NCBI GenBank assembly: GCA_025937815.1
Contig: JAICQP010000001.1
Coordinates: forward strand, 3,891-67,890
Origin: Gemmatimonadota bacterium
GTDB taxonomy: Bacteria; Gemmatimonadota; Gemmatimonadetes; JACCXV01; JAHWKZ01
Direction of reading: 5' to 3'
Length of the DNA: 64,000 nucleotides
In this document: one piece after another, positions 11,823 through 59,460 of the stretch
How positions within the stretch are numbered: the first letter of the stretch is position 1
Layout of the letters: every line of letters begins with the position of its first letter
Notes under the pieces: generated by a model
What the model was told of the DNA's origin: nothing
What the model saw: only the letters and a program-made list of their open reading frames with translations
The model's database searches: none
Translations under genes and position numbers: made by a program

Positions 11823-11978
11823 ATGGAGAAGAAGCAGTACGTGACCCCCAAGGTTCTTGAACTTGGTACCGTGAAACAGCTCACCGAAACCACTCCGGAA
11901 GCCGACAAGTGTAGCGGCAGCGGCGACGTGCGAACCGTCCAGGAGCTGAGCCCCAACTACAGCACCGACTGCCCGTAA
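11823..11978 (+). CDS. small Cys-containing peptide, paralog 2
   Basis: ATG start with GGAAGG RBS; product MEKKQYVTPKVLELGTVKQLTETTPEADKCSGSGDVRTVQELSPNYSTDCP (51 aa). Confidence 0.65.
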   Translation: MEKKQYVTPKVLELGTVKQLTETTPEADKCSGSGDVRTVQELSPNYSTDCP

Positions 11979-12359: not shown

Positions 12360-12515
12360 CTACGGGCAGTCGGTGCTGTAGTTGGGGCTCAGCTCCTGAA
12401 CCGTCCGCACGTCTCCGCTGCCGCTGCACTTGTCGTTCTCCGGCGTCGTCTCGGTGAGCTCCTTGACGGAGCCCAGCTCCACGACCTTCGGGGTTTCGTA
12501 CGGCTTCCTGCTCAT
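12360..12515 (-). CDS. small Cys-containing peptide, paralog 3
   Basis: C-terminal 51 codons of six-frame ORF 12360..12668; ATG with GGAGGAG RBS; product MSRKPYETPKVVELGSVKELTETTPENDKCSGSGDVRTVQELSPNYSTDCP. Confidence 0.65.
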   Translation of the reverse strand: MSRKPYETPKVVELGSVKELTETTPENDKCSGSGDVRTVQELSPNYSTDCP

Positions 12516-12743: not shown

Positions 12744-12899
12744 CTACGGGCAGTCCGTGCTATAGTTCGGGCTTATCTGTTGCACGGTGCGGACGTCACC
12801 GCTGCCGCTGCACTTGTCTTCCTCGGCCGTCGTCCGGGTGAGCTCTCTCACCTTGCCGAGGTCGAATACCCTGGGAGCTACGTAAGGCTTCCTGCTCAT
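12744..12899 (-). CDS. small Cys-containing peptide, paralog 4
   Basis: Terminal 51 codons of long shadow ORF 12744..14093; ATG with GGGAGGGG RBS; product MSRKPYVAPRVFDLGKVRELTRTTAEEDKCSGSGDVRTVQQISPNYSTDCP. Confidence 0.65.
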   Translation of the reverse strand: MSRKPYVAPRVFDLGKVRELTRTTAEEDKCSGSGDVRTVQQISPNYSTDCP

Positions 12900-24760: not shown

Positions 24761-25816
24761 GTGAAGCGGGATGCAGGGATCGGCGCGGGCGACCCGCCGG
24801 CGAGCCTCCGGGCGATCGTCGCGGGCGTCGACCTCCGCGCCGCGGAGTCCGAGGCGCTGTTCGCGCGGATCATGGACGGGGACGTCCCGCCGTCCATGGT
24901 GGGCGCGCTTCTCGCCGCTCTGGCGACCAAAGGCGAGACGTCCGCGGAGATCGCGGGAGCCGCGCGGGTCATGCGGGCGCGGGTGACGCGCGTGCCCACG
25001 ATCCGGGAGCCCCTCGTCGACACCTGCGGGACCGGCGGCGACCACTCCGGGAGCTTCAACGTGTCCACCGGCGCCGCGCTCGTGGTGGCCGCGGCGGGCG
25101 TCCCGGTGGCCAAGCACGGCAACCGCGCGGCATCCTCCCGCTGCGGATCGGCCGACGTGCTCGAGGCCCTCGGCGTGGCGATCGATCTCGATCCGGCGAG
25201 CGTGGGGCGCTCGATCGACGAGCTCGGTATCGGGTTCCTGTACGCGCCCCGCTTCCATCCGGCCATGCGACATGCCGCCCAGGCGCGTCGCGAGATCGGG
25301 ATCCGGACGATCTTCAACCTGCTCGGTCCGCTCACGAATCCGGCCGGAGCGCGGCGGCAGCTGATCGGGGTCCCGGCCGCCGACGCGGTAGGACGGATCG
25401 CGGGCGTGCTTCGCGAGCTCGGCGCCGAAGCGGCCGTCGTCGTGCACGGCATGGAGGGTCTGGACGAGATCTCCGTGTGCGGACCGACGCGGATCGCGTA
25501 CGTCGACGGTGGAGAGTTGGAGGAGTCGGTGATCGAACCCGCCGACCTCGGCTTGCCGACGTTCGAGATCCACGAGATGGCGGGCGGCGACGCGGCCGAG
25601 AACGCGGCCATCCTCCGCGGCGTGCTCGAGGGGCGGGGAAGCGACGCCCAGCGGGCGGTGGTCGCGGCCAACGCGGGCGCCGGGATCTGGATCGGCGGAG
25701 GGGCGGTGACCCTGCGCGCCGGAGTCGACCAGGCGCGTGAGACGATCGCGTCCGGGCGGGCGGCGGAGCTCCTGGACCGCCTCGTGGACCTGACCGCGCG
25801 GCTCGCGAGGGGTTAG
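24761..25816 (+). CDS. trpD: anthranilate phosphoribosyltransferase
   Basis: TrpD pattern (DTCGTGGDHSGSFNVSTGAA, KHGNRA); GTG start 24761; the long upstream six-frame ORF is antisense shadow of truA/htrA. Confidence 0.85.
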   Translation: MKRDAGIGAGDPPASLRAIVAGVDLRAAESEALFARIMDGDVPPSMVGALLAALATKGETSAEIAGAARVMRARVTRVPTIREPLVDTCGTGGDHSGSFNVSTGAALVVAAAGVPVAKHGNRAASSRCGSADVLEALGVAIDLDPASVGRSIDELGIGFLYAPRFHPAMRHAAQARREIGIRTIFNLLGPLTNPAGARRQLIGVPAADAVGRIAGVLRELGAEAAVVVHGMEGLDEISVCGPTRIAYVDGGELEESVIEPADLGLPTFEIHEMAGGDAAENAAILRGVLEGRGSDAQRAVVAANAGAGIWIGGGAVTLRAGVDQARETIASGRAAELLDRLVDLTARLARG

Positions 25817-26427
25817 CGGTACTTCCGCAGGACCCCGATCGCGACGCCCTGAATCCGGACCCGTGCGGCGTCGTAGTAGAGCGGCGTCAACCGCTCGTTG
25901 GCGGGCTGCAGCCGGATGCGGCCATCAGGCTCGCGGAAGAACGTCTTCAGGGTCGCGTTCTCGCCGTCGATGAGCGCGACCACCCGCTCGCCGCTACGCG
26001 CCGTGTCGCGGCGCTCGACGATCACGTAGTCGCCGTCCTCGATGTGCTCGTCGATCATCGAGTCGCCGGCCACCCGCAGGACGAACGTCTCGCCGCGGCC
26101 CAGCATCGATTCCGGAACCGCGATCGCCTCGTCATCGGTGATAGCCTCGAGCGGCTGCCCGGCCGCCACGCGGCCGAGGAGGGGGAGGAGAACCGCGGAC
26201 TCGCGCGAGCGGCCGCTCCCGTCGGTCAGCTCGATCGCCCGGCTCCGGTGGGGATCGCGCCGGAGCGCTCCCTTCTCGGCCAGGTTCTCGAGATGCTCGT
26301 GCACGGTCGCCACCGAGCTGAGCCCGAAGCGGGCCGCGATCTCCTCGAGGCTCGGCGCATAGCCGTTGTCTTCGATGAATTCGGCGAGGTAGTCGTAGAT
26401 TTCGCGCTGTCGCCTGGTTAGCTTCAT
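25813..26427 (-). CDS. lexA: LexA repressor (S24 peptidase)
   Basis: 204 aa; N-terminal HTH (LTRRQREIYDYL...), Ala-Gly cleavage-site region (VAAGQP), Ser/Lys dyad pattern (GDSM...KTF). Confidence 0.85.
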   Translation of the reverse strand: MKLTRRQREIYDYLAEFIEDNGYAPSLEEIAARFGLSSVATVHEHLENLAEKGALRRDPHRSRAIELTDGSGRSRESAVLLPLLGRVAAGQPLEAITDDEAIAVPESMLGRGETFVLRVAGDSMIDEHIEDGDYVIVERRDTARSGERVVALIDGENATLKTFFREPDGRIRLQPANERLTPLYYDAARVRIQGVAIGVLRKYR

Positions 26428-26457
26428 CTCTCCGCTCTCCTCGTGGACTAGCTCGGC

Positions 26458-27339
26458 GTGCGCCGGCCGCACGCGGCGCCATCCGGTGGACGTCCAACAT
26501 TGACCGAACAAAGGCCGAAAGTCAACCCCCCCTCGGGTTTCCTCGCGGGCGCTCTGGCGCGAAAGCGGGCCGAGGTGGATCTCGCCCGGCGTAGACGGCC
26601 ACGCGCGGAGCTCGAGCGGCTCGTCGCCGCCCGACCCGCGGTCCGGTCGCTCGCGGACGCCCTCCGGGGAGAAGGCGCGTCGGTGATCGCCGAGGTGAAG
26701 CGGGGGAGCCCGAGCGCGGGAGTCCTCGACGCCGGCATCGATGCGCCGGCGCGCGCCCGCCTCTTCGAAGAGCGGGGAGCCGCGGCGGTCAGCGTCCTCA
26801 CCGACGCGGAGTTCGACGGCCGGCTCGCGGATCTCGAGGCGGTCGCCGCGGCCGTGTCGGTTCCCGTGGTCCGCAAGGACTTCCTCGTCGACCCGTGGCA
26901 GGTCTGGGAGAGTCGCGCCGCGGGGGCGGACGCGGCCCTCGTGATCGTCGCCGCGCTCGGCCCGCGGGAACTCGGAGCTCTGGTGGCGGAGAGCGCGGCC
27001 GCGCGTCTCGGCCTTCTGTTCGAGATCCACGACAGGGCGGAGGCCGGGGCGGCGATCGACGCCGGCGCCTCCGTCATCGGCGTCAACGCGCGCGACCTGT
27101 CGTCCCTCGAGGTCGACCTGGACTCGGCTCTATCCACGGTCGCATGGCTGCGCCGCGAGGTCCCCGATGCGGTGATCGTCGCCGAGAGCGGCGTCGGGGG
27201 CGAGGAGGGAGTTCGGCGCGCACGCGACGCCGGGGCCGACGCGGTCCTGGTCGGGGAGCACCTCTCGCGCGCGGTGGATCCGGGGAGCGCGCTGGAACGG
27301 CTGGTGGCCGCCGGCAGGCGCGCGGTCGGCTCCGCGTGA
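26458..27339 (+). CDS. trpC: indole-3-glycerol phosphate synthase
   Basis: IGPS pattern (SVIAEVKRGSPSAG, VLTD, NARDL); GTG 26458 or in-frame TTG 26503 as start. Confidence 0.8.
   Translation: MRRPHAAPSGGRPTLTEQRPKVNPPSGFLAGALARKRAEVDLARRRRPRAELERLVAARPAVRSLADALRGEGASVIAEVKRGSPSAGVLDAGIDAPARARLFEERGAAAVSVLTDAEFDGRLADLEAVAAAVSVPVVRKDFLVDPWQVWESRAAGADAALVIVAALGPRELGALVAESAAARLGLLFEIHDRAEAGAAIDAGASVIGVNARDLSSLEVDLDSALSTVAWLRREVPDAVIVAESGVGGEEGVRRARDAGADAVLVGEHLSRAVDPGSALERLVAAGRRAVGSA
26495..26509 (+). promoter_or_regulatory. candidate LexA operator (GTTC-N7-GTTG on minus strand)
   Basis: Minus-strand GTTCGGTCAATGTTG ~70 nt upstream of lexA start, resembling GTTC-N7-GTTC direct-repeat SOS boxes. 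Confidence 0.35.
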
Positions 27340-47176: not shown

Positions 47177-49057
47177 ATGACCGACGACAAGATTACCGCC
47201 CCGACCCCGGCGGAGACCGAGGCGGAGGCGACCCCCACGCTTCAGAAACGATCCCCGAACAACCAAGGCCGAAACAACCTCCGTCCCGACCTCTTCGACG
47301 AGGACGAGTATTCGATCGACGAATACGAGGAGCTCCTCGGCATGTACGAGGAGTCCATCCAGGACATCCAGGAAGGCCAGATCGTCACGGGGCACATCCT
47401 GCGCGTGGACGAGAACGTCGTCGTGCTCGACGTGGGCTTCAAGAGCGAGGGCGCCGTCCCGCTCGACGAATTCAAGCCCACGGATTCGCTGGAGGTCGGC
47501 GCCGAGGTCGACGTGTTCCTCGAGAACCTCGAGGACGCCGAGGGGCGGGTCGTCCTGTCCAAGAAGAAGGCCGACTTCTTCAAGGTCTGGGACAAGATCC
47601 GGATCGCTTACGACAACGGGACGATCGTCCAGGGGAGACTGGCGCGGAAGATCAAGGGCGGCGTGATCGTCGACCTGTTCGGCGTGGACGCCTTCCTGCC
47701 GGGCTCCCAGATCGCACTGCGGCGCGTACCCGACATCGACGCGTTGATCGGCCAGACGATGGAGTTCAAGATCATCAAGCTCAACAAGCGCCGGCGGAAC
47801 ATCGTGGTCAGCCGCCGGATGATCCTCGAGCAGATCCGCGAGCAGAAGCGGGGCAAGCTCCTCGAGGAGATCGCCGTGGGACAGGTCCGCAAGGGAGTCG
47901 TCAAGAACATCACCGACTTCGGCGCGTTCATCGATCTGGGCGGCGCCGACGGGCTCTTGCACATCACCGACATGTCGTGGGGCCGGGTCGGCCATCCCTC
48001 CGAGCTCGTGACGATCGGCGACGAGCTGGAGATCAAGATCCTCGACCTCGACCTGCAGAACAACCGCATATCGCTCGGCCTGAAGCAGCTCCAGCCCTAC
48101 CCGTGGGAAGACGTATCCCAGAAGTTCCCGGTGGGGTCCCGGATCCAGGGGAAGGTCGTCTCGATCACCAACTACGGCGCGTTCGTCGAGCTGGAGAAGG
48201 GCGTCGAGGGGCTGGTCCACATCTCCGAGATGTCGTGGACGCGGCACATCAAGCACCCCTCCAAGGTCGTCTCCATCGGCGACATCATCGAAGCGGTCGT
48301 CCTCAACGTGAACGAAGAGGAGGAGAAGATCTCCCTCGGCATGAAGCAGATCGAGGAAGATCCCTGGGACGGCCTGGCCGAGAAGTATCCGCCGGGCACC
48401 GTCATCGCCGGGAAGGTGAGGAACCTGACGTCGTTCGGCGCCTTCGTGGAGATCGAAGAGGGGATCGACGGCCTCGTGCACATCAGCGACATGTCGTGGA
48501 CGCGCCGCATACACCACCCGTCGGAAGTAGTGCGCAAGGGCGAGACCGTTAAGGTCCAGGTCCTCAACATCGACACGGAGAACAAGCGGATCTCGCTATC
48601 GATCAAGGACCTCCAGGAGAACCCGTGGCAGGACCTGGGGCAGAAGTACTCGGTCGGCGTGGAGTCCGAAGGCAAAGTCGTGCGGCTCCTGGACAAGGGC
48701 GTGGTCGTAGATCTGGGCGGCGACGTCGAAGGGTTCGTGCCGATCTCGCAGCTCGGGTACCGCAACCTCGAGAATCCCGCCGACAAGTTCCGCGAAGGAG
48801 ACCTGCTGGTCCTCAAGGTCATCGAGTCGGACCCCGACAGCCGGCGAATCGTGCTCTCCGTGATCGACATTCCGAGCCACCGCGAGCGCGGAGAGGAAGA
48901 GCCGATCGAGCCCGCGGAGTCCATGGATGGCGACGTTGCGCGGGAAGAGCAGCCGACCCAGATGGCCGACGCGATGGCGGAGGCGCAGGTCGAAGTCGGC
49001 GCCGGCAAGTCCAGCGAGGCCGCGGAGGAAGCGGCAGACCGCGAATCCGCAGAGTAG
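47177..49057 (+). CDS. rpsA: 30S ribosomal protein S1
   Basis: Six tandem S1 domains, acidic termini; cmk-rpsA synteny. Confidence 0.9.
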   Translation: MTDDKITAPTPAETEAEATPTLQKRSPNNQGRNNLRPDLFDEDEYSIDEYEELLGMYEESIQDIQEGQIVTGHILRVDENVVVLDVGFKSEGAVPLDEFKPTDSLEVGAEVDVFLENLEDAEGRVVLSKKKADFFKVWDKIRIAYDNGTIVQGRLARKIKGGVIVDLFGVDAFLPGSQIALRRVPDIDALIGQTMEFKIIKLNKRRRNIVVSRRMILEQIREQKRGKLLEEIAVGQVRKGVVKNITDFGAFIDLGGADGLLHITDMSWGRVGHPSELVTIGDELEIKILDLDLQNNRISLGLKQLQPYPWEDVSQKFPVGSRIQGKVVSITNYGAFVELEKGVEGLVHISEMSWTRHIKHPSKVVSIGDIIEAVVLNVNEEEEKISLGMKQIEEDPWDGLAEKYPPGTVIAGKVRNLTSFGAFVEIEEGIDGLVHISDMSWTRRIHHPSEVVRKGETVKVQVLNIDTENKRISLSIKDLQENPWQDLGQKYSVGVESEGKVVRLLDKGVVVDLGGDVEGFVPISQLGYRNLENPADKFREGDLLVLKVIESDPDSRRIVLSVIDIPSHRERGEEEPIEPAESMDGDVAREEQPTQMADAMAEAQVEVGAGKSSEAAEEAADRESAE

Positions 49058-49111: not shown

Positions 49112-50824
49112 GTGCGAAGTCTCCTAACCGCTATCCTGTGCGCGGCGCTGTCGCTGGCGGCGTGCGCAACCGCCGAGAGGCTTCCGCCCCCGCTCGGCCG
49201 CGAGTCCATCAGCCGCGCCGATCAGGCGACCGCCCTGGCGGCCTACGAGCGCGGGCTCGCGCTCTTCCAGCAAGGGACCTACGAAGGGGCGCTCTCCGAG
49301 TTCACGGTCGTCGTCGAGCGCTACCCGTCGAGCCGCTACGCCGGCCTCGCCCTGTACTGGCGGGGGCGTGCCGCCTATCAGCTGGGGCGGGACGAGGAGG
49401 CGGCGGCCGCGCTCGATCGCTACCTGCGGCTGGCGTCCGACGTCCCGCATGCCGAGCACGCGACCCTGCTTTTGGCGAACTCCCTCTACAACCAGACACG
49501 CTACGAGGCCGCGCTCCAGGCGGCGCTCGAGAGGCGGAGCGTCTCCGGCGAGCTCCTGGACGATTATCTGGCGCTCTTCCGGGACCTGCTGAACCGGCTG
49601 CCGCGGGCGGAGATCGAGGCCGCGGCGGGCCGTACTCCTACGCGCAACTTCGTGGCCCCGTTCTACCTGCAGTCCGCGCGCTGGGCGCACGCGGCCGGAG
49701 ACGCGGCGCGGGCCAGCGACATCGCCTCGCGCGTCACCGAGTTTCCCGAGCTTCCGCCGTCCATCATCGCCGAGGCGCGTGTGCTCATCGGCCCCGGCGG
49801 CCAGGCGGCGGCGATCGCCCCGAGCCTGGGCCTCATCGCGCCCACCGAGGGGCGCTTCGCGGAAGTCGCCGAGCAGATCCGGCGTGGAGTCGAACTGGCG
49901 CTCGAGGACGTGAACCGGACGGGGCAGACGCCGGTCGCGCTCGTGACGCGCTCGGCCGAGAACGATCCCGACTCGACGGCCGCGGTGATCCGCACGCTGG
50001 CTCGGAACGAGCACGTGGCTGCGATCCTGGGTCCGCTTACCAGCGAGTACGCGCTGCCGGCCGCCCGGCTCGCGGTGGAGGAGGGGGTGCCGCTCGTCAG
50101 CCCGACCGCCACCGACGCGCGCCTCCTGGAAATCGATCCGCGCGTGTACACCGTCAACGCGCTGGACGGCGCGATCGGCCACACGATCGGGACATACGCG
50201 GCAACCAACCTGGAACGGCGCCGCTTCGCGATCCTGGCCGTGGACGACGCCTACGGACGGATCCAGGCGGACGCGTTCGCCGCCGCAGTCCAATCCTCCG
50301 GCGCGCGCGTGGTCTACCGCTTCCAGTACGAGCGCGGCTCGACCCAGTATACCGACCAGCTGGGGGCGATCGTCCGCTCCGGAGCCGACGCGCTCTTCAT
50401 CGCCACCAAGAGCCCGAGCGAGGCCCTCAGGATCCTGAATCAGATGGCGTTCTACGAGCTCGGCGGCATCCTGCCGCTGGGAACGGACGCGTGGAACGAC
50501 GCCGAGTTCTACCGGCAGGGCCGGCGCTTCGTGCGCGGCTACTTCGCCGACACCTACAGCCGCGACCCACGGATCACCGAATGGGACTCCTTCGCCGAGC
50601 GCTACCAGGCGCGCTTCGGCGAGGCGCCGGCCAGCCTGATCCCCGGCTGGGGCTATGACGCGGCGCGCATCGCGCTCGAGCGCCTGCGGCCGTCGAGCGC
50701 GCCTCAGGAGAGCGGCGAGTACCACGGAGTGACCGGGCTGTTCCGCTTCGGCCCGCAGGGCATCCGGCGCGCGGTCATCGTGCACCGGGTCGAGCGCGGC
50801 GAGCCGGTAGCGGTGGACTGGTAG
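49112..50824 (+). CDS. lipoprotein with N-terminal TPR-like region and type-I periplasmic binding-protein fold (LpoA-like)
   Basis: Lipobox LAAC; TPR-like helices; C-terminal LivK/PBP1-like pattern. Confidence 0.5.
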
Positions 50825-50829
50825 GGCCC

Positions 50830-52371
50830 GTGGACAGGCTCGAGGAGCTGCGCGCGCGCGAAGCGAAAGCGCGCGAGGGCGGCGGAGCCGCCCGGCTCGC
50901 CGCCCAGCACGCCAAGGGAAAGCTCGGCGCGCGCGAACGACTCGAGCTCCTGCTCGACCCGGGCTCGTTCTTCGAGCTCGACATGTTCGTCACCCACCGC
51001 ACCGAAGAATTCGGGCTGTCCTCGCAGAGAATCCCCGGCGACGGGGTCGTCACCGGCCACGGCACCATCGACGGCCGGCGGGTGTGGGTCTTCAGCCAGG
51101 ACTTCACCGTGTTCGGCGGATCGCTCTCGGAGGCGCATGCCGAGAAGATCTGCAAGGTCCTCGATCTGGCGCTGAAGACGGGGCACCCGGTGATCGGCCT
51201 GAACGACTCCGGGGGCGCGCGCATCCAGGAGGGAGTCGCCTCACTGGGTGGATACGCGGAGATCTTCCTGAGGAACACGCTCGCCAGCGGAGTCGTGCCG
51301 CAGATAAGCGCCGTCCTGGGACCGTGCGCGGGCGGGGCCGTGTACTCGCCCGCCATCACCGATTTCGTCTGCATGGTCGAGGGGGTCTCGTACATGTTCG
51401 TGACCGGGCCGAACGTGGTGAAGACGGTCACGCACGAGGAGGTGTCGTTCGAGGAGCTGGGCGGCGCGGCGGTGCACGGCGGCAAGAGCGGCGTGAGCCA
51501 TCTCACGTTCCCCGACGAGCCCGCCTGCTTCGCCGGCATCCGCACGCTGATCGGCTACCTGCCGGCGAACAATCAGGAGGACCCCCCGCTCGTCGAATCC
51601 ACCGACGACCCGCAGCGCCGGTCGCCGGGCCTCCGTGACGTCGTCCCCGAGAACCCGAACAAGCCGTACGACGTCCACGAGATCGTCGCCGAGGTGGTTG
51701 ACCGCGGATCGTTCTTCGAGGTCCAACCCGATTACGCGGCGAATATCGTGGTCGGGTTCGCGCGTCTCGACGGCCGCACCGCGGGGATTCTCGCCAACCA
51801 GCCCGCCGTCCTCGCGGGGGTCCTGGACATCGACGCCAGCTTGAAGGCGGCCCGGTTCGTCCGCTTCTGCGACGCGTTCAACATCCCGCTGGTCACGTTC
51901 GTGGACGTGCCGGGCTTCATGCCCGGGACGGAGCAGGAGTGGGGAGGGATCATCAAGCACGGCGCCAAGCTCCTGTACGCGTACTGCGAGGCGACCGTCC
52001 CCAAGCTGACCGTGATCCTGCGAAAGGCGTACGGCGGCGCATACGACGTGATGTCGTCGAAGCACATCCGGGGGGATCTGAACCTCGCGTGGCCCTCGGC
52101 CGAGATCGCCGTCATGGGGCCGAAGGGCGCCGTCGAGATCCTGTGGAAGCGCGAGATCGAGACCGCCCAGGATCCCGTCACTCTCCTCGAGCAGCGGACC
52201 GAGGAGTTCCGCGAGCGGTTCGCCAACCCGTACGTCGCGGCGGAGCGCGGCTACGTCGACGCCGTCGTCGATCCCGCGGACACGCGCGCGCTGCTGATCG
52301 CGGGGCTGTCCGCGCTGGCGTCCAAGCGGGACGCGAACCCGCTGCGGAAGCACGGCAACATCCCCCTTTGA
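50830..52371 (+). CDS. pccB: acyl-CoA carboxylase carboxyltransferase subunit (propionyl-CoA carboxylase beta / methylmalonyl-CoA carboxyltransferase family)
   Basis: Carboxyltransferase pattern ([41 protein letters not shown]-like). Confidence 0.8.
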
Positions 52372-52411: not shown

Positions 52412-53935
52412 TTGCGTGTCAACGTGAGGTCGCTGGGCCGCGTCCTGGTCGCGAACCGGGGGGAGATCGCGGTCCGTGTCCTGCGGGCCTGTCGGGAGGC
52501 GGGATTGCCGACCGCGGCCGTCTACTCGACCGCCGATGCCGACGCGTGCCACGTGCGGGCGGCCGACCGCGCCCTGGAGATCGGTCCGGGACCGGCCCGC
52601 GAATCGTATCTGGCAGCCGATCGCATCCTGGACGCGGCACGCCGTCTGGACGCGGGCTCGGTGCATCCGGGGTACGGGTTCCTCGCCGAGAACGCGGGCT
52701 TCGCCGAGGCGGTCGAGCGCGCCGGGCTCGTCTGGATCGGGCCGCCGCCGGCGGCGATCCGCGCGATGGGCGAGAAGACCGCGGCCCGGCGGACCATGCA
52801 GGCCGCCGGTGTGCCCGTCGTGCCGGGTACCGTGGAGCCGGTGAGCGAGCCGGCGGCCGCCCTCGAGGCGGCCGCGGAGACCGGCTTCCCCGTCCTTCTC
52901 AAGGCGGCCGCGGGCGGCGGGGGAAAGGGTATGCGCGTGGTGCGCGAGCCCGCGGAGTTCGAGGGGGCCTTCGCCGCAGCGACGCGGGAGGCGCAGGGCG
53001 CGTTCGGCGATCCGTCGCTCTACCTCGAGCGGTACATCCTCGAGGCGCGGCACGTCGAGATCCAGATTCTCGCCGACGAGTCCGGCCGCGCGATCCACCT
53101 CGGCGAGCGGGAGTGCTCGCTCCAGCGCAGGCACCAGAAGGTGCTCGAGGAGTGTCCCGCGCCCGGCCTCGTTGCCGAGACACGGGAGCGGATGGGGGCG
53201 GTCGCCGTCCGCGCCGCGGAGGCCGTCGGGTACGTCGGCGCGGGCACGGTCGAGTTTCTGCTGGCGCCCGACGATTCCTTCTGGTTCCTGGAGATGAACA
53301 CCCGGCTCCAGGTGGAGCATCCCGTCACCGAGATGGTGACGGGTCTCGACCTCGTGCGGGCCCAGCTCGCCATCGCGGCCGGGGGCGGCCTGCCGGTCGA
53401 GCAGGACGAAGTTCGGCTCTCCGGCCACGCGATCGAATGCCGGATCGCGGCCGAGGATCCCGCGCGGGGGTTCGTTCCGTCGACGGGCAGGATCCGCGCG
53501 TGCGCCGAGCCGGCGGGACCGGGAATCCGGGTCGACAGCGGGGTCGCGGCCGGCAGCGAGGTGACGCAGCACTACGACCCCCTCCTGCTCAAGGTCGTCG
53601 CCCACGGCCGCGACCGCGCGGAGGCGCTGGCGAGGATGGCGCGCGCTCTGGCCGAGCTGGACATCGGAGGGATCCGGACGAACGTCGGCTTCCAGCGCGC
53701 GCTCGTCGCGAATCCGGCCGTGCGCGATGGCCGGGTCCACACGCGCTGGCTCGAGGAGCACGCGAGCGAGGTGCTCGAGGCCGAGAGCGCCATGCGCCGG
53801 GAGTCGGAGCCGCTGGCCGCCGCGCTGGCCGCCTGGCTCGAGGCGGAGCGCCCGCCGGGGGTCGCGCTACAGGCTCGGGAGGGGGACGGCGGCGTGGCGC
53901 GCTGGCGCGCGGCGGCCCGCTGGATCGGGCTATAG
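52412..53935 (+). CDS. accC: biotin carboxylase (acetyl/propionyl-CoA carboxylase alpha-subunit BC domain; no fused BCCP)
   Basis: ILVANRGEIA, ATP-grasp GGGGKGMRVV, ELNTRLQVEHPVTE; ends before any biotinyl domain. Confidence 0.85.
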   Translation: MRVNVRSLGRVLVANRGEIAVRVLRACREAGLPTAAVYSTADADACHVRAADRALEIGPGPARESYLAADRILDAARRLDAGSVHPGYGFLAENAGFAEAVERAGLVWIGPPPAAIRAMGEKTAARRTMQAAGVPVVPGTVEPVSEPAAALEAAAETGFPVLLKAAAGGGGKGMRVVREPAEFEGAFAAATREAQGAFGDPSLYLERYILEARHVEIQILADESGRAIHLGERECSLQRRHQKVLEECPAPGLVAETRERMGAVAVRAAEAVGYVGAGTVEFLLAPDDSFWFLEMNTRLQVEHPVTEMVTGLDLVRAQLAIAAGGGLPVEQDEVRLSGHAIECRIAAEDPARGFVPSTGRIRACAEPAGPGIRVDSGVAAGSEVTQHYDPLLLKVVAHGRDRAEALARMARALAELDIGGIRTNVGFQRALVANPAVRDGRVHTRWLEEHASEVLEAESAMRRESEPLAAALAAWLEAERPPGVALQAREGDGGVARWRAAARWIGL

Positions 53936-55269
53936 TGAGCGAACAGTTGGCTGGTCCCGTAGCGGGCGACGCGGTCGAGCTCGAGGTCGAGCGGATCGCT
54001 TACGGTGGCGACGGCGTGGGCCGGGCGGACGGCCTGGTCGGGTGCGTTCCGTGGACCGCGCCCGGCGAGCGGGTCCGCGCGCGGATCGTCGAGCGGCATC
54101 CCCGGTACGCCCGCGCTCGTCTCGAGGGAGTCCTGGCCGCCGGCGACGCCAGGGTCGAGCCGGGCTGCCCGGTGTTCGGGATCTGCGGTGGCTGCCAGCT
54201 GCAGCATCTCGATCGCGACGCACAGCTCGCGTCCAAGGCCCGGGCGGTCGCCGATGCCTTCGAGAGGATCGCGGGGAAGCCGCTCGCGGAGCCGCTGGCC
54301 TGCGAGCCGGCGGCCGAACCGTGGCACTACCGGCGCCGGGCGACGTTCACGTGGCGGCGATCGGAAGGCACGACCGTGCTCGGATTCCATGCCGCCGACG
54401 ACCCGGGCGGGATCGTCGACGTAGAGGCGTGTCCGATCTTCGCGGAGCGCGGGAACGCGGCCCTCGCCGGCCTGAGAGAGGCGCTCGCGAATGCACCCCC
54501 GGCAGACGGGGACGCGCCGGAGGAGGCGCGCATCGCCGTGCGCGCGCTCCCTGGCCAGGACGCCCAGGCGGGAGTCTTCTGCGATTCCGCGGAGCGCGCG
54601 CGTGAGCTCGCCGCTCACTGCGCGGAGCGCGCGGGGATCGCGACGACCTGGGGGGCCCGGGCAGGTACGGCGGCGCCGTTCGCGCTTGCAGCCGGTGCGC
54701 CGCGGCTCGTATCGCGGATGGAGTTCGGCGGGTTGAGGCTCCGGGTGGGCTTCGATAGCTTCCTGCAGGCCGATCCGGTGGCCGCCGCGCAGCTCTACGA
54801 CGGCGTCGAGAACGCGCTGGCCGCACGTCCGGGGGATCGAGTGATCGACGGGTATGCGGGGATCGGCGTGCTGACGTGCCGTCTCGCGCGGGCCGGCGTG
54901 CGGGTCACCGCGGTCGAAGCCCATGGCGGCGCCGCCTCCGATCTGCGCGCGAACGCGGCTGCGGCGAGTGGCGAGCCCGTGCACGTGCTCGAGCTGCCGG
55001 CCGAGCGCGTGGACTGGCGCCGGCCGCGGCCGGACCGCGTCGTGCTCAACCCGCCGCGATCGGGATGCGCGCCAGCGGTGCTCGACTCGATCTCCCGCTC
55101 CAGCGCGCGGCGCCTGGTGTACGTGTCGTGCGACCCGACCACCCTGGCGCGGGACGTCCGCCGGCTGGGAAGCGCGTGGCGGCTGGAGTCGATCCGCGCC
55201 TTCGACCTCTTCCCGCAAACCGCGCACGTAGAGACGCTGGCCTCGCTCTCCCGGGAGAACAGCCCGTGA
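53935..55269 (+). CDS. rlmD: 23S rRNA (uracil-C5)-methyltransferase RlmD/RumA family
   Basis: TRAM-like N-terminus, Fe-S motif [14 protein letters not shown], class I SAM MTase C-terminus; GTG start 1-nt overlap with accC stop. Confidence 0.7.
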
Positions 55270-55793
55270 CCGGCGGGCGCCTGTTCTGGGTGACACCCGG
55301 CGACGGCGGTCCCTACCGTGTGGTCCTGCGCTCGGTTCGCGGCGGTTGGGAGGCCGCGGTCGAGCGCGGCGGGGAGCGATGGACGTTCCCGATCGTGGCC
55401 GGCGCGGATCCGGGGCTCGCGTGGTCGGGTGCGCGGCCGGTCCGCTACCGGTGGGAGCCGGATCTGGGGGGGCTCTCGGTGGACGGCTGGACGCACGAGC
55501 TGCGCATCGAGAGCGATGCGGCCCATCGGGCCTCCGAGCTCGTACTCGCGTCCGCGGGTGCCGAGACGGCGGCCAGCGTGCGCGCTCCGATGCCGGGGCT
55601 CGTGCTGGTGCTCGAAGTGGCGGAGGGCGATCCGGTCGAGAAGGGTCAGGGGATCCTGATCATCGAGGCGATGAAGATGGAAAACGAGATACGCGCGCCG
55701 ATCGCCGGCGTCGTCCGGCGCCTGGCGGTCTCGGCGGGAGACGCGGTGGAGCGGGATGCCCTGCTGTGCGTGGTGGATCCGGAGGGCTCGTGA
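55266..55793 (+). CDS. biotin carboxyl carrier protein with atypical N-terminal extension
   Basis: C-terminal biotinyl domain [36 protein letters not shown]; GTGA overlap on both sides; shorter internal starts possible. Confidence 0.65.
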
Positions 55794-57445
55794 CCGAGTC
55801 GCCCGACAAAGCCGCCTGGAAGCGTCGCACGCTGGAGCCCCATCTCGCGCGAAACCCCGAGCGCGACACGAGGTTCGAGACCTCGAGCGGTCTCGGGATC
55901 GAGCCGGCGTACGGCTCCGGCGACGCGGATCCCGATGCCGCCGGTTGGCCGGGCGAGTTCCCGTACACTCGCGGCATCTATCCCAACATGTACCGCGGCC
56001 GCCTGTGGACTATGCGCCAGTACGCGGGGTTCGGCACCGCGGAGCAGACGAACGCACGCTTCCGGTTCCTCCTCGACCACGGCCAGACCGGCCTGTCGAC
56101 CGCGTTCGACCTGCCCACCCAGATGGGATACGACTCCGACAGCGAGCGTGCCGAGGGAGAGGTCGGGAGGACCGGCGTGGCGATCGACACGCTGGACGAC
56201 ATGCGCCGGCTGTTCGCCGGGATTCCGCTGGCCGACGTGTCGACGTCCATGACCATCAATGCCACGGCCACGACGCTCCTCTCGCTCTACACGCTGGTCG
56301 CGGAGGAGCAGGGGACGCCGCATCGCGCGCTCAGGGGGACGACTCAGAACGACATCCTCAAGGAATACGTCGCCCGCGGGACGTACATCTATCCGCCGGC
56401 GGGTAGCCTGCGGCTGGTCGTGGACTCGTTCGCGTGGTGCGCGCGCGAGATGCCGCGCTGGAACCCGATCTCGATCTCCGGCTACCACATCCGCGAGGCG
56501 GGCGCCACCGCCGCGCAGGAGGTCGCGTTCACGTTCGCGAATGCGATCTGCTACGTGGAGGCGGCGCTGTCGGCGGGTCTGGAGGCGAGCGAGTTCGTCG
56601 GTCGGCTGTCGTTCTTCTTCGGCGTCCACAACGATCTCTTCGAGGAGGTAGCGAAGTTCCGCGCCGCGCGGCGCATCTGGGCCGGCCTCGTGCGCGACCG
56701 GTTCGGCGTCGCCGATCCGGAAGCGGCGCGGCTGAGGTTCCACACCCAGACCGACGGCGCGACCCTCACGGCGCAGCAGCCCCTCAACAACGTCGTGCGG
56801 GTAACGCTACAGGCGCTGGCGGCGGTGCTCGGCGGGACCCAGAGCCTCCACACCAACGGGTACGACGAGGCGCTGGCGCTGCCGAGCGAGGAGTCGGCCG
56901 AGCTCGCCCTGAGGACGCAGCAGATCGTCGCCCACGAGAGCGGCGTGGCGGATACTGCCGACCCCCTCGGGGGCTCGTACTTTGTCGAGCGCCTTACGGA
57001 TGACCTCGAGGGACGCGTCCGCGACTACCTCGACCGTATCGCCGACATGGGCGGCGCGATCGCCGCCATCGAGCAGGGGTTCTTCCGCGCCGAGATCGAG
57101 CGCGAGGCCTACGCCCACCAGCGCCAGGTGGAGAGCGGCGAGGAGATCGTGGTTGGCGTGAACAGGTGGCAGAAGGCGGAGGACCTCGAGCCGCGGATCC
57201 CCCGCGTCGACACCGAGTCGCTCGCCGAGAGGCAGAAGGAGCGCCTCGCCGATTGGCGCGCGCGGCGCGATGCGGACCGGACCGACGCGTCGCTCGAGAG
57301 TCTGGCGGAGGCCGCCCGCGGCAGCGAGAACCTGCTCCCGCTCATTCGCGGCGCCTGTGCCGCCGGCGCCACCGTGGGCGAGATCGCCGACGTCCTGCGG
57401 GCGGAGTTCGGAACCTACAGCGATCCCGCCGGCATCGGCGGGTAG
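55790..57445 (+). CDS. methylmalonyl-CoA mutase family large (catalytic) subunit without B12-binding domain
   Basis: MCM catalytic-barrel pattern ([12 protein letters not shown]..., [43 protein letters not shown]); 551 aa. Confidence 0.8.
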
Positions 57446-57463: not shown

Positions 57464-57811
57464 ATGCCGACGTACGTTTACCGCTGTCGCGATTGCGACC
57501 GGCAGTTCGAGCACTTCGAGAAGATGACGAGCCGCGTGAAGATGCGGAAATGCCCGACCTGCGGCGGCCGTGGCGAGCGCCAGATCTCGGGCGGGGCGGG
57601 GTTCCTGTTCAAGGGCGAGGGCTTCTACATCACCGACTACCGCAGCGAAGAGTACCGCTCGAAGCACAAGGCCGAGACAGAAAAGGCCGCTCCGCCGGGC
57701 GACGCCGCGGATGCCAAGCCGGCCGGTCCTGAGTCGGCGGCCGACAAGACGGCGGCCAAGCCGGTGGCGACGAAGAAGTCCCGCGGGGGATCGAAGAAGA
57801 AGAAGCGATGA
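57464..57811 (+). CDS. FmdB-family zinc-ribbon protein with Lys-rich tail
   Basis: MPTYVYRCRDCDRQFE...CPTCGG (CxxC...CxxC) pattern; basic C-terminus. Confidence 0.65.
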   Translation: MPTYVYRCRDCDRQFEHFEKMTSRVKMRKCPTCGGRGERQISGGAGFLFKGEGFYITDYRSEEYRSKHKAETEKAAPPGDAADAKPAGPESAADKTAAKPVATKKSRGGSKKKKR

Positions 57812-59460
57812 GGCCGCGGGACGAGCTTCGCTCGCGGCTGACGGCCCTTTGCGTGCAGCGGGGCTGGCCCGCCGAGGAGGTAGCGGTCGAGCGCCCCAAC
57901 GACCGCGCCCGCGGCGACTGGGCGAGTCCCGTGGCGCTCGCCCTCGCCCGTCCGCTCCGGCGCGCGCCGCGGGAGATCGCCTCCGAGCTCGCCGACGCGC
58001 TCTCGCTCGATTCGACGCGGTGGGAGGAGCCCGAGGTCGCCGGGGCGGGATTCCTCAACTTTCGCCTAGCTCGCCCCTACCTCCAGGACGTCGTCCGGCG
58101 GCTGATCGAAGAGCCGGACGGCCACATGCGCTCCGACCGCCTCGCGGGCCGCCGGATCAACGTCGAGTTCGTGAGCTCGAATCCGACCGGCCCGCTCCAC
58201 GTCGGCCACGCGCGGAACGCGGCGCTCGGGGACGGGATCGCGGCGCTTTTCGCCAGCCAGGGCGCGGACGTCACCCGCGAGTACTACTTCAACGACGCGG
58301 GTCGCCAGATGGACATCCTGGGCGCGTCCGTCCACGCGCGCTACCGGCAGATGACGGAGCCGGACTTCCCGTTCCCCGACGAGGGATACCAGGGCGAGTA
58401 TATCGCCGATCTGGCGCGGGAGTTCGCAGTCGAGCACGGGGACGCATTCCGGGACGTCCCGCTCGAGGAATGCCTGGCGGAGTTCCGATCGTTCGCCGGC
58501 GAGCGGATCAGCGCCGGGATCCGCGCCGATCTGGAGCGCTTCCGCGTCTCCTTCGACGTCTGGTTCAACGAGTCCACCCTGTATCGTGACGGCCGAACGG
58601 AGCAGACGCTCGAGGAGCTCAAGGCTCTGGGGGCGGCCTACGAGAAGGACGGCGCGACGTGGCTCCGCGCGACGGACTACGGCGACACCGAGGACCGCGT
58701 GCTGGTCAAGAGCACGGGTCACCCGACGTACCTGCTCCCCGACCTCGCGTACCACCGCGACAAGCACGAGCGCGGGTTCGATCAGGCGATCGACATATGG
58801 GGCGCGGACCATCATAGCTACGCCGTCCGCATGCAGGCGGGCCTCACGGCCCTCGGCTACCCGGCCGACTGGCTGCGCACGGTCATCTATCAGCAGATCA
58901 GCCTGATCGAGGACGGGGAGGAGGTGCGGCTCTCGACCCGCAAGAACCGCATGGTCACGCTGCGCGAGCTCCTCGATGACGTGGGCGTGGACGTCACCCG
59001 CTGGTTCCTGCTCATGCGGAAAGGCGACACGCACATGACGTTCGACCTCGATCTCGCCCGGCGGCAGTCGGACGAGAACCCCGTCTACTACGTCCAGTAC
59101 GCGCACGCGCGGCTGGCCGGCGTGTTCACGAGGAACGAGCGCCCCGAGTGGGACCCCGCGCTGGCGGGCGTTCCCGGCTCGCTCGACCGGCTGAATGCCG
59201 AGCGCGAGATCGACCTTCTCCGGGCGCTCGACGATCTTCCCGACGTCGTCGCCGACGCCGCCGACGCCCTCGAGCCGCACCGCGTGACCGACGCGCTGGA
59301 GGAACTCGCGCGGCGGACCCATCTTTGGTACCACGACCATCGGATCCTGGTGGACGACGAGCACCTGGCGCGCGCACGGTTGGCGCTCGCTCGCGCGTGC
59401 GCGAACGCGCTTCGCGAGGGGCTCGCCCTGCTGGGAGTCGAAGCCCCCGAGACGATGTAG
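57808..59460 (+). CDS. argS: arginine--tRNA ligase
   Basis: Class I pattern SSNPTGPLHVGHARNA (HIGH) and ArgRS anticodon-binding C-terminus; ATGA overlap with upstream gene. Confidence 0.9.
   Translation: MRPRDELRSRLTALCVQRGWPAEEVAVERPNDRARGDWASPVALALARPLRRAPREIASELADALSLDSTRWEEPEVAGAGFLNFRLARPYLQDVVRRLIEEPDGHMRSDRLAGRRINVEFVSSNPTGPLHVGHARNAALGDGIAALFASQGADVTREYYFNDAGRQMDILGASVHARYRQMTEPDFPFPDEGYQGEYIADLAREFAVEHGDAFRDVPLEECLAEFRSFAGERISAGIRADLERFRVSFDVWFNESTLYRDGRTEQTLEELKALGAAYEKDGATWLRATDYGDTEDRVLVKSTGHPTYLLPDLAYHRDKHERGFDQAIDIWGADHHSYAVRMQAGLTALGYPADWLRTVIYQQISLIEDGEEVRLSTRKNRMVTLRELLDDVGVDVTRWFLLMRKGDTHMTFDLDLARRQSDENPVYYVQYAHARLAGVFTRNERPEWDPALAGVPGSLDRLNAEREIDLLRALDDLPDVVADAADALEPHRVTDALEELARRTHLWYHDHRILVDDEHLARARLALARACANALREGLALLGVEAPETM

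Follow-up and report, generated by a model that had tools for sequence, protein, structure and literature searches.

A gene for an RNA methyltransferase stands inside a cluster for an acyl-CoA carboxylase and a mutase, raising the questions of how it came to be there and whether the carboxylase and mutase subunits around it are as aberrant as they had seemed. The cluster lies on a stretch of 64,000 nucleotides from a Gemmatimonadota bacterium (assembly GCA_025937815.1, contig JAICQP010000001.1, positions 3,891 to 67,890), called the window below, to which all nucleotide positions refer. It encodes most of the route from propionyl-CoA to succinyl-CoA. The explanation that we favour, with a probability of about 0.75, is that it comprises a split propionyl-CoA carboxylase (PCC) and a split methylmalonyl-CoA mutase (MCM) together with an inserted, vertically inherited and co-expressed rlmD gene for a RumA/RlmD-family m5U RNA methyltransferase, no functional link being needed. 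The finding is real and tidy and mostly ordinary, the nested rlmD being its only unusual part.

Organization of the cluster

The G+C content of the window is about 70%, and genes were called from their domain content because such a composition yields many long spurious open reading frames (ORFs). The domain identities on the plus strand bore out the gene order given in the original prediction, namely pccB, accC, rlmD, the gene for the biotin carboxyl carrier protein (BCCP) and the mutase gene, and with it the presence of an RNA methyltransferase gene inside the carboxylase/mutase cluster, an arrangement that recurs in related loci. The start placed earlier at 52412 is that of accC, while pccB begins upstream at 50830 (Table 1).

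Three junctions with overlapping GTG starts had been claimed, and all three were read from the nucleotide sequence. At the accC/rlmD junction (taGTG) the GTG shares one base with the TAG stop codon at 53933-53935, and the rlmD/BCCP and BCCP/mutase junctions both read GTGA, at 55266-55269 and 55790-55793, respectively. Genes called in related loci overlap in the same way. The four-base overlap of start and stop codons is the commonest type of overlap in bacterial operons and, given this and the recurrence, the overlaps are regarded as real but ordinary. They are consistent with co-transcription of these genes.

Two genes for the PCC alpha subunit

The N-terminal region of about 100 aa of the biotin carrier subunit had been described as non-canonical. 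It is the BT-domain beta-barrel of PCC alpha. Residues 1-105 searched alone gave no Pfam match even at an E-value (E) of 10, and the window protein by itself was below Pfam significance for PCC_BT, so that the barrel was recognised only through a family profile and a structure model. Positions 5-168 of the profile (A1), which comprised 42 homologs of the protein, aligned end to end with residues 513-681 of PCC alpha (3n6r_A; E 4e-31), and the human and Methylorubrum PCC alpha chains were aligned likewise. PF18140 (PCC_BT) was matched by 8 of the 42 family members. The AlphaFold2 model of the 175-aa protein (mean predicted local distance difference test, pLDDT, 88.7) revealed an eight-stranded barrel (pLDDT ~90) with strands at residues ~5-83, followed by a helix at 84-96 and the biotinyl domain at ~103-172, and the top Foldseek matches of this model were PCC alpha chains over all 175 columns (E 2e-10, probability 1.0). 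The biotin-accepting Lys137 is located in the motif EAMKMEN (window 55665-55685), and E134-A-M-K137-M-E-N, which includes AMKM, is invariant in the 42 sequences. The BCCP is canonical for a split PCC.

AccC, in turn, had been taken to be a biotin carboxylase only. It scored 622 bits against NF006367 (cutoff 597), and its biotin carboxylase (BC) part comprises residues ~9-450. The 55-aa tail beyond it (window ~53753-53932) belongs to the stretch of PCC alpha that precedes the barrel: positions 2-98 of the tail profile (A2) aligned with PCC alpha 3n6r_A 415-511 and also with MCC alpha 3u9s_A 401-499. A Trp-Arg pair of the tail (W498-R499; W101/R102 in the alignment) is invariant in 6/6 Gemmatimonadota tails. 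In PCC the BT domain consists of a long helix within an eight-stranded antiparallel barrel, and the loop leading from helix to barrel, the "hook", bears a conserved Trp that lies buried within the beta subunit (PMC4673880); acting as a hub, the domain keeps BC and BCCP on the carboxyltransferase (CT; bioRxiv 10.1101/2024.04.30.591959). By homology, the AccC tail would represent the part of PCC alpha that links the BC domain to the BT barrel, and is assigned on that basis to the BT helix and the hook.

AccC and the BT-BCCP protein between them span a canonical PccA, and the break falls just ahead of the first barrel strand, near residue 512 of 3n6r_A, since the match of the AccC tail ends at residue 511 and that of the BT-BCCP protein starts at 513. 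The two halves joined in silico were collinear with the naturally fused PccA proteins from loci L032, L041, L059 and L085. Fused forms of PccA were found in Alphaproteobacteria, Gaiellaceae and Marinilabiliales. The split form without rlmD was found in Ignavibacteriales, Bacteroidota, Anaerolineales, Caldilineaceae, Zixibacteria, Rokubacteria, Bacteriovoracaceae and Palauibacter; in these other split loci rlmD does not part the alpha-subunit genes.

The alpha6beta6 PCC enzymes of known structure (3N6R, a Ruegeria/Roseobacter chimera; human 7YBU/8XL3; Methylorubrum extorquens 6YBP) have the BC, BT and BCCP modules in the same order and the AMKM biotin site, and their CT is closely related to PccB (E ~1e-212). 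Unlike these enzymes, in which BC, BT and BCCP lie on a single alpha polypeptide, the alpha subunit studied here consists of two polypeptides, cut before the BT barrel, whose genes are parted by rlmD. The enzyme is predicted to work like PCC but with a three-subunit architecture. Subunits of ~500, 170 and 515 aa, similar in size to those encoded here, make up the archaeal three-subunit carboxylase. Unlike the archaeal enzyme, the present one belongs to a bacterial lineage with no role in autotrophy indicated, and the likeness is one of architecture, not of direct sequence comparison. The archaeal enzymes of Metallosphaera sedula and Acidianus brierleyi likewise have separate genes for BC, BCCP and CT (AccC/AccB/PccB; Hugler 2003 and Chuakrut 2003, both cited in PMC3199775).

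Substrate of the carboxylase

The best solved relatives of PccB are all PCC beta chains (1vrg, 3n6r_B, 6ybp_A and human PCCB; E 9e-214 to 4e-202), and a GGAYD motif is present at residues 402-406. Work on Streptomyces PccB reportedly found that the Asp of such a motif favours propionyl-CoA. Together with the adjacency of the MCM gene, these features provide circumstantial evidence that the carboxylase may prefer propionyl-CoA.

It is rather unlikely that propionyl-CoA is not the dedicated substrate of the carboxylase, which would instead be either a promiscuous acetyl-/propionyl-/acyl-CoA enzyme of the archaeal three-subunit type or part of a methylmalonyl-CoA decarboxylase or transcarboxylase system. 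Among NCBIfam models, the CT indeed matches TIGR01117 (mmdA) best, but the score of 802 bits is below the cutoff of 998.8, and the top solved relatives of the CT are those named above. Decarboxylase gamma chains, 2d5d for example, are likewise among the matches of the BCCP domain, whereas the small subunit as a whole best matches the BT-BCCP part of PCC alpha; a decarboxylase or transcarboxylase, moreover, does not need the ATP-grasp biotin carboxylase that is present here. The three-subunit layout resembles that of bifunctional archaeal enzymes (Chuakrut 2003 and Hugler 2003, as they appear among the references of PMC3199775), while the gene translationally coupled downstream is that of an MCM catalytic subunit. 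A split PCC is retained as the preferred identity.

The mutase subunit

The mutase matched PF01642 over profile positions 1-512 of 512 (4e-213) and the N-terminal-domain subfamily TIGR00641 (acid_CoA_mut_N) with 713 bits (cutoff 303.8). As predicted originally, the cobalamin-binding (B12) domain is absent from the 551-aa protein; that this is an oddity did not hold, since TIGR00641 and the heterotetrameric MCM represent a known split architecture. MCM occurs as a homodimer, a heterodimer or a heterotetramer (PMC6759758), and in the heterotetramer of M. sedula the B12 domain is located on a separate chain encoded at a locus distant from the large-subunit gene (Msed_0638/Msed_2055; Han et al. 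2012, in the form in which PMC6759758 cites it). The large subunits of this split MCM and of HcmAB (4R3U) likewise consist of the substrate-binding barrel only. The 551-aa protein is best described, from its domain and residue matches, as the predicted catalytic, substrate-binding large subunit of a split adenosylcobalamin-dependent MCM.

Among solved structures the mutase scored highest with the HcmA large subunit (4r3u; 554 bits) and lower with human MCM (487 bits), which would speak for a 2-hydroxyisobutyryl-CoA mutase (HCM). The higher score probably reflects the shared split, B12-less architecture. In the alignments with these two proteins Tyr78 (in RQYAGF), Ala105 and Arg196 (in xRxTYI) agree with human MCM, HcmA having Ile, Asp and Gln instead, and the Tyr232-His233 pair also matches MCM. 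Positions 78, 105 and 196 are presumably those that determine specificity. On these active-site residues an HCM or isobutyryl-CoA mutase (ICM) identity was rejected, and the gene directly follows a PCC; a 2-hydroxyisobutyryl-, isobutyryl- or ethylmalonyl-CoA mutase in place of MCM is very improbable.

The six frames of the 64-kb window were searched for the missing domain by tblastn with a B12-domain sequence and by a DxHxxG scan, and neither search detected a B12-binding domain in any frame. The tblastn query proved valid, as it found fused B12 domains with 59-68% identity in loci of other phyla (L026, L049, L072 and L078). A B12 subunit in the same operon downstream of the mutase gene, considered earlier as a way in which the split would become ordinary, was not found there: fmdB and then argS follow. 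The ORF at 57464-57811 was considered as a B12 subunit and rejected, since it encodes an FmdB zinc ribbon. The B12 subunit would thus act in trans and, like the G-protein chaperone MeaB and the methylmalonyl-CoA epimerase, may be encoded elsewhere in the genome.

The RlmD-like methyltransferase

The RlmD-like protein scored 252.6 bits against TIGR00479, above the equivalog cutoff of 183.55, and 219 bits against NF009639, below its cutoff of 458; the TRAM domain (PF01938) was matched at 7.5e-07. Two HMMER-aligned segments to E. coli RumA cover ~345 of the 444 residues. Alignment with RumA (1uwv) identified Cys78, Cys84, Cys87 and Cys166 as the [4Fe-4S] ligands, Cys399 (VSCDP) as the nucleophile and Glu433 (HVE) as the base, and the S-adenosylmethionine (SAM) motif D305-x-Y-x-G-x-G (D305, G309, G311) and NPPR at 372-375 are present. 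The conserved RumA catalytic Cys, proposed earlier as the residue to look for, is thus in place as Cys399, and all of these residues (cluster Cys, SAM motif, NPPR, Cys399 and Glu433) show no variation among 17 homologs with identities as low as 37%. A pseudogene was rejected on these grounds. The possibility that rlmD is degenerate and holds this position only here was likewise not borne out, the gene being intact and its position being held in 18 loci.

E. coli RumA/RlmD (1UWV, 2BH2), the 23S m5U1939 methyltransferase, shares with the protein the TRAM domain, the four-Cys [4Fe-4S] site, the SAM fold and the catalytic Cys and Glu; unlike the E. coli gene, the gene studied here lies inside a split pccA. 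The targets of the family vary and include U1939, U747, both (RlmCD) or tRNA U54 (PMC6235398). Several relatives of the RlmD-like protein are tagged with the PabTrmU54 TRAM-domain Pfam, and its closest homologs are all from uncultured Gemmatimonadota. We predict that the product is a normal, functional RumA/RlmD-family m5U RNA methyltransferase.

Distribution of the nested rlmD

Nine RlmD homologs (36-72% identity) were looked up, and eight of them were found in the context pccB-accC-rlmD-BCCP-mutase-fmdB-argS (L001, L002, L003, L005, L006, L087 and L088), only the homolog on a metagenome contig (L004) lacking it. A scan with the BCCP family profile, with one genome per species, yielded 80 loci, which were annotated by tblastn with the window proteins. 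The rlmD gene lies between accC and BCCP in L001-L003, L005-L009, L021, L023, L031, L054, L073, L083, L087 and L088, and in L020 and L052 it adjoins BCCP where the contig ends, which gives a total of 18 Gemmatimonadota-type loci with a nested rlmD in both classes of the phylum. Among them are members of the Longimicrobiales (class Longimicrobiia; L007), Gemmatimonadales (L031, L073) and Gemmatimonadaceae (L020, L054, L083), and RlmD identity drops to 33-36% across these loci. No rlmD was found in any of the 22 loci carrying labels of other taxa in which accC precedes BCCP (one of them labelled only 'bacterium').

Candidatus Palauibacter rhopaloidicola (L056, 5320-8880; class Gemmatimonadia) has the order rpsA, a periplasmic binding protein (PBP) gene, pccB, accC, BCCP, mcm, fmdB and argS with no rlmD in it, and its accC and BT-BCCP genes are directly adjacent, as if rlmD had been cleanly lost secondarily or had moved elsewhere. 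A metagenome-assembled genome (MAG; L040) is rearranged upstream of BCCP, and rlmD is missing from that position. The nesting is shared by almost every related Gemmatimonadota locus analysed. Given the spread over these loci, it appears to be old and apparently specific to Gemmatimonadota, with occasional loss or disruption. We found no earlier description of rlmD inside a PCC cluster or a split pccA in the literature searched.

Foreign genes were also observed within the cluster. In L005 (CP070823.1, 9300-13542) four opposite-strand genes, coding for a PBP-like protein, a porin O/P, a histidine kinase and a response regulator, lie between rlmD and BCCP, and in L006 (1740-2470 and 6036-10320) BCCP and the mutase gene are separated by a DinB gene and a hypothetical one, while pairs that resemble toxin-antitoxin modules (MazE/PIN, HEPN/NTase) border the cluster. 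Such insertions are compatible with the nested arrangement.

A functional tie of the RlmD-like protein to the carboxylase and mutase, as regulator, assembly factor, redox-sensing Fe-S partner or as a coupling of ribosome modification to the breakdown of propionate and branched-chain amino acids, would mean that selection rather than inertia holds rlmD in place. The conservation of its position in the 18 loci of both classes at so low an RlmD identity agrees with such a tie, as do the context shared by eight of the nine looked-up homologs and the start/stop overlaps on both sides, which imply obligatory co-expression. We nevertheless regard it as unlikely: the protein keeps all residues for m5U methylation and the TRAM domain, as expected of a housekeeping rRNA or tRNA enzyme, Palauibacter keeps the cluster without rlmD, the 22 loci of other taxa run the accC-BCCP module without it, and the L005 insertion parts rlmD from BCCP. 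In addition, the surrounding 37 kb consist of many unrelated housekeeping genes on one strand, and no such tie was found in the literature searched. Very unlikely is the more specific proposal that rlmD is retained because the carboxylase needs it, either through a translational coupling that governs when, or in what ratio, AccC and BT-BCCP are made or through moonlighting of the Fe-S/TRAM protein as a partner or regulator of the PCC-MCM module. If true, the coupling would let the split BT domain assemble correctly, and moonlighting would connect the modification of ribosomes in Gemmatimonadota with the catabolism of propionate and branched-chain amino acids.

Neighbouring genes

The features of the locus are collected in Table 1.

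Table 1. Genes of the carboxylase/mutase cluster and its flanks in the window.
Feature	Position	Strand	Evidence or remark
cmk	ends 47059	+	upstream gene
rpsA	47177-49057	+	upstream gene
TPR + Peripla_BP_6 protein	49112-50824	+	Pfam PF13458 5.6e-38 plus TPR families
pccB-type carboxyltransferase (beta) subunit, 513 aa	50830-52371	+	PF01039 3.4e-198
accC, biotin carboxylase + 55-aa C-terminal tail	52412-53935	+	Biotin_carb_N, CPSase_L_D2, Biotin_carb_C
rlmD-like, RumA/RlmD-family m5U RNA methyltransferase, 444 aa	53935-55269	+	TIGR00479, PF01938 TRAM, PF05958
BT-barrel + BCCP subunit, 175 aa	55266-55793	+	PF00364 2.4e-18, family profile, model
Mutase large subunit, 551 aa	55790-57445	+	PF01642 4e-213, TIGR00641
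FmdB-family CxxC zinc-ribbon protein, 115 aa	57464-57811	+	PF09723 1.1e-12; TIGR02605 57.3 bits
argS	57808-59460	+	follows fmdB

The TPR + Peripla_BP_6 (LivJ-like) protein has a lipoprotein-like N-terminus (LSLAAC), and its gene ends 5 nt before pccB. A PF13458 gene or homolog is located directly upstream of pccB in L001, L002, L003, L005, L056 and L088. The gene is possibly part of the same transcription unit as pccB, and its product may provide a link between amino-acid binding and the propionyl-CoA module. On the other side of the cluster, fmdB is kept between the mutase gene and argS in L001-L003, L005, L007, L008, L031, L056, L087 and L088; its position is retained in Palauibacter too, where rlmD is missing from the cluster.

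The plus strand from ~27400 to 64000 of the window forms an unbroken co-directional array of ~37 kb of unrelated housekeeping genes with many tiny or overlapping junctions. Its members include trpF/B/A, folB/folK, panB/panC, dksA, corA, an M14 peptidase gene, cmk and rpsA, followed by the PCC, rlmD and MCM genes, argS, pfkB, purM and ribD. A promoter scan of 46-64 kb, which is of little power here, revealed no sigma-70-like sites, and a terminator scan of the same region, likewise of low power, gave terminator-like sites near chance level and inside genes, which did not subdivide the cluster.

Other observations in the window

Two paralogous ORFs of 51 aa were identified on the minus strand at 12360-12515 and 12744-12899 (MSRKPY..P.V..LG.V.ELT...DKCSGSGDVRTVQ..SPNYSTDCP). 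They match NF033521, a leader model of lasso ribosomally synthesized and post-translationally modified peptides (RiPPs), with 26.8 and 20.6 bits (cutoff 19), while a third ORF at 11823-11978 on the plus strand is weaker (13.6 bits). These ORFs lie between a tRNA cluster and era, in a stretch of lower G+C content (~0.63) with no confident long genes, and no lasso cyclase or peptidase was found near them. A LexA-like protein encoded at 25813-27030 on the minus strand, called as 405 aa, has its LexA DNA-binding domain from residue 203 and its S24 peptidase domain from residue 283; either it carries an N-terminal extension of ~200 aa, or the start was called too far upstream in the high G+C sequence.

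Discussion

The history that would account for the cluster begins with an ancestral FCB-type operon pccB-accC-(BT-BCCP)-mcmL in which the alpha subunit was already split. In an early ancestor of the Gemmatimonadota, the rlmD gene would have entered between accC and the BT-BCCP gene, would then have become translationally coupled on both sides and expressed by read-through, and would since have been inherited in place within the long co-directional housekeeping array. At the protein level, the AccC tail may pack non-covalently into the small subunit's barrel, and the conserved Trp-bearing end of AccC may dock on PccB, which would rebuild the BC-BCCP-CT hub from separate chains.

Several points weigh against this explanation. 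The position of rlmD has been held for longer than neutral drift usually preserves gene order, with RlmD down to 33-36% identity, which leaves room for a selected link, for example shared regulation or a need for spacing. An AlphaFold chimera of the AccC tail and the barrel, with alignment depth on the BCCP side only, gave a pLDDT of ~45-63 for the tail, and is uninformative on the packing of the helix in the barrel because the tail was without alignment depth; with the confidence of the tail this low, the case for reassembly of the BT domain is one from homology. Concerning the mutase, no B12 domain was found within ~7 kb of its gene in any Gemmatimonadota locus, and neither MeaB/ArgK nor an epimerase was detected by Pfam among the ~50 predicted window proteins of at least ~85 aa that the scan covered, some short ORFs and the two genes at the window ends lying outside it. 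With these partners unfound in the window, a full propionyl-CoA pathway in the organism is putative. The split PCC and split MCM with an inserted rlmD nevertheless remain the explanation to which we give most weight, and a functional coupling of rlmD to the enzymes is probably absent.

The seemingly strange BCCP and the B12-less mutase are the standard forms of a split PCC and a split MCM, and this helps in annotating the many MAG proteins that carry only the label "biotin/lipoyl-containing protein". The fission point of PccA is placed just before the BT barrel, which offers a natural system for two-chain reassembly of a BT domain. The nested rlmD, a gene apparently inserted between two genes that jointly encode one enzyme subunit, provides a clean marker of gene order across the phylum Gemmatimonadota; its importance would grow only with proof of a functional link.

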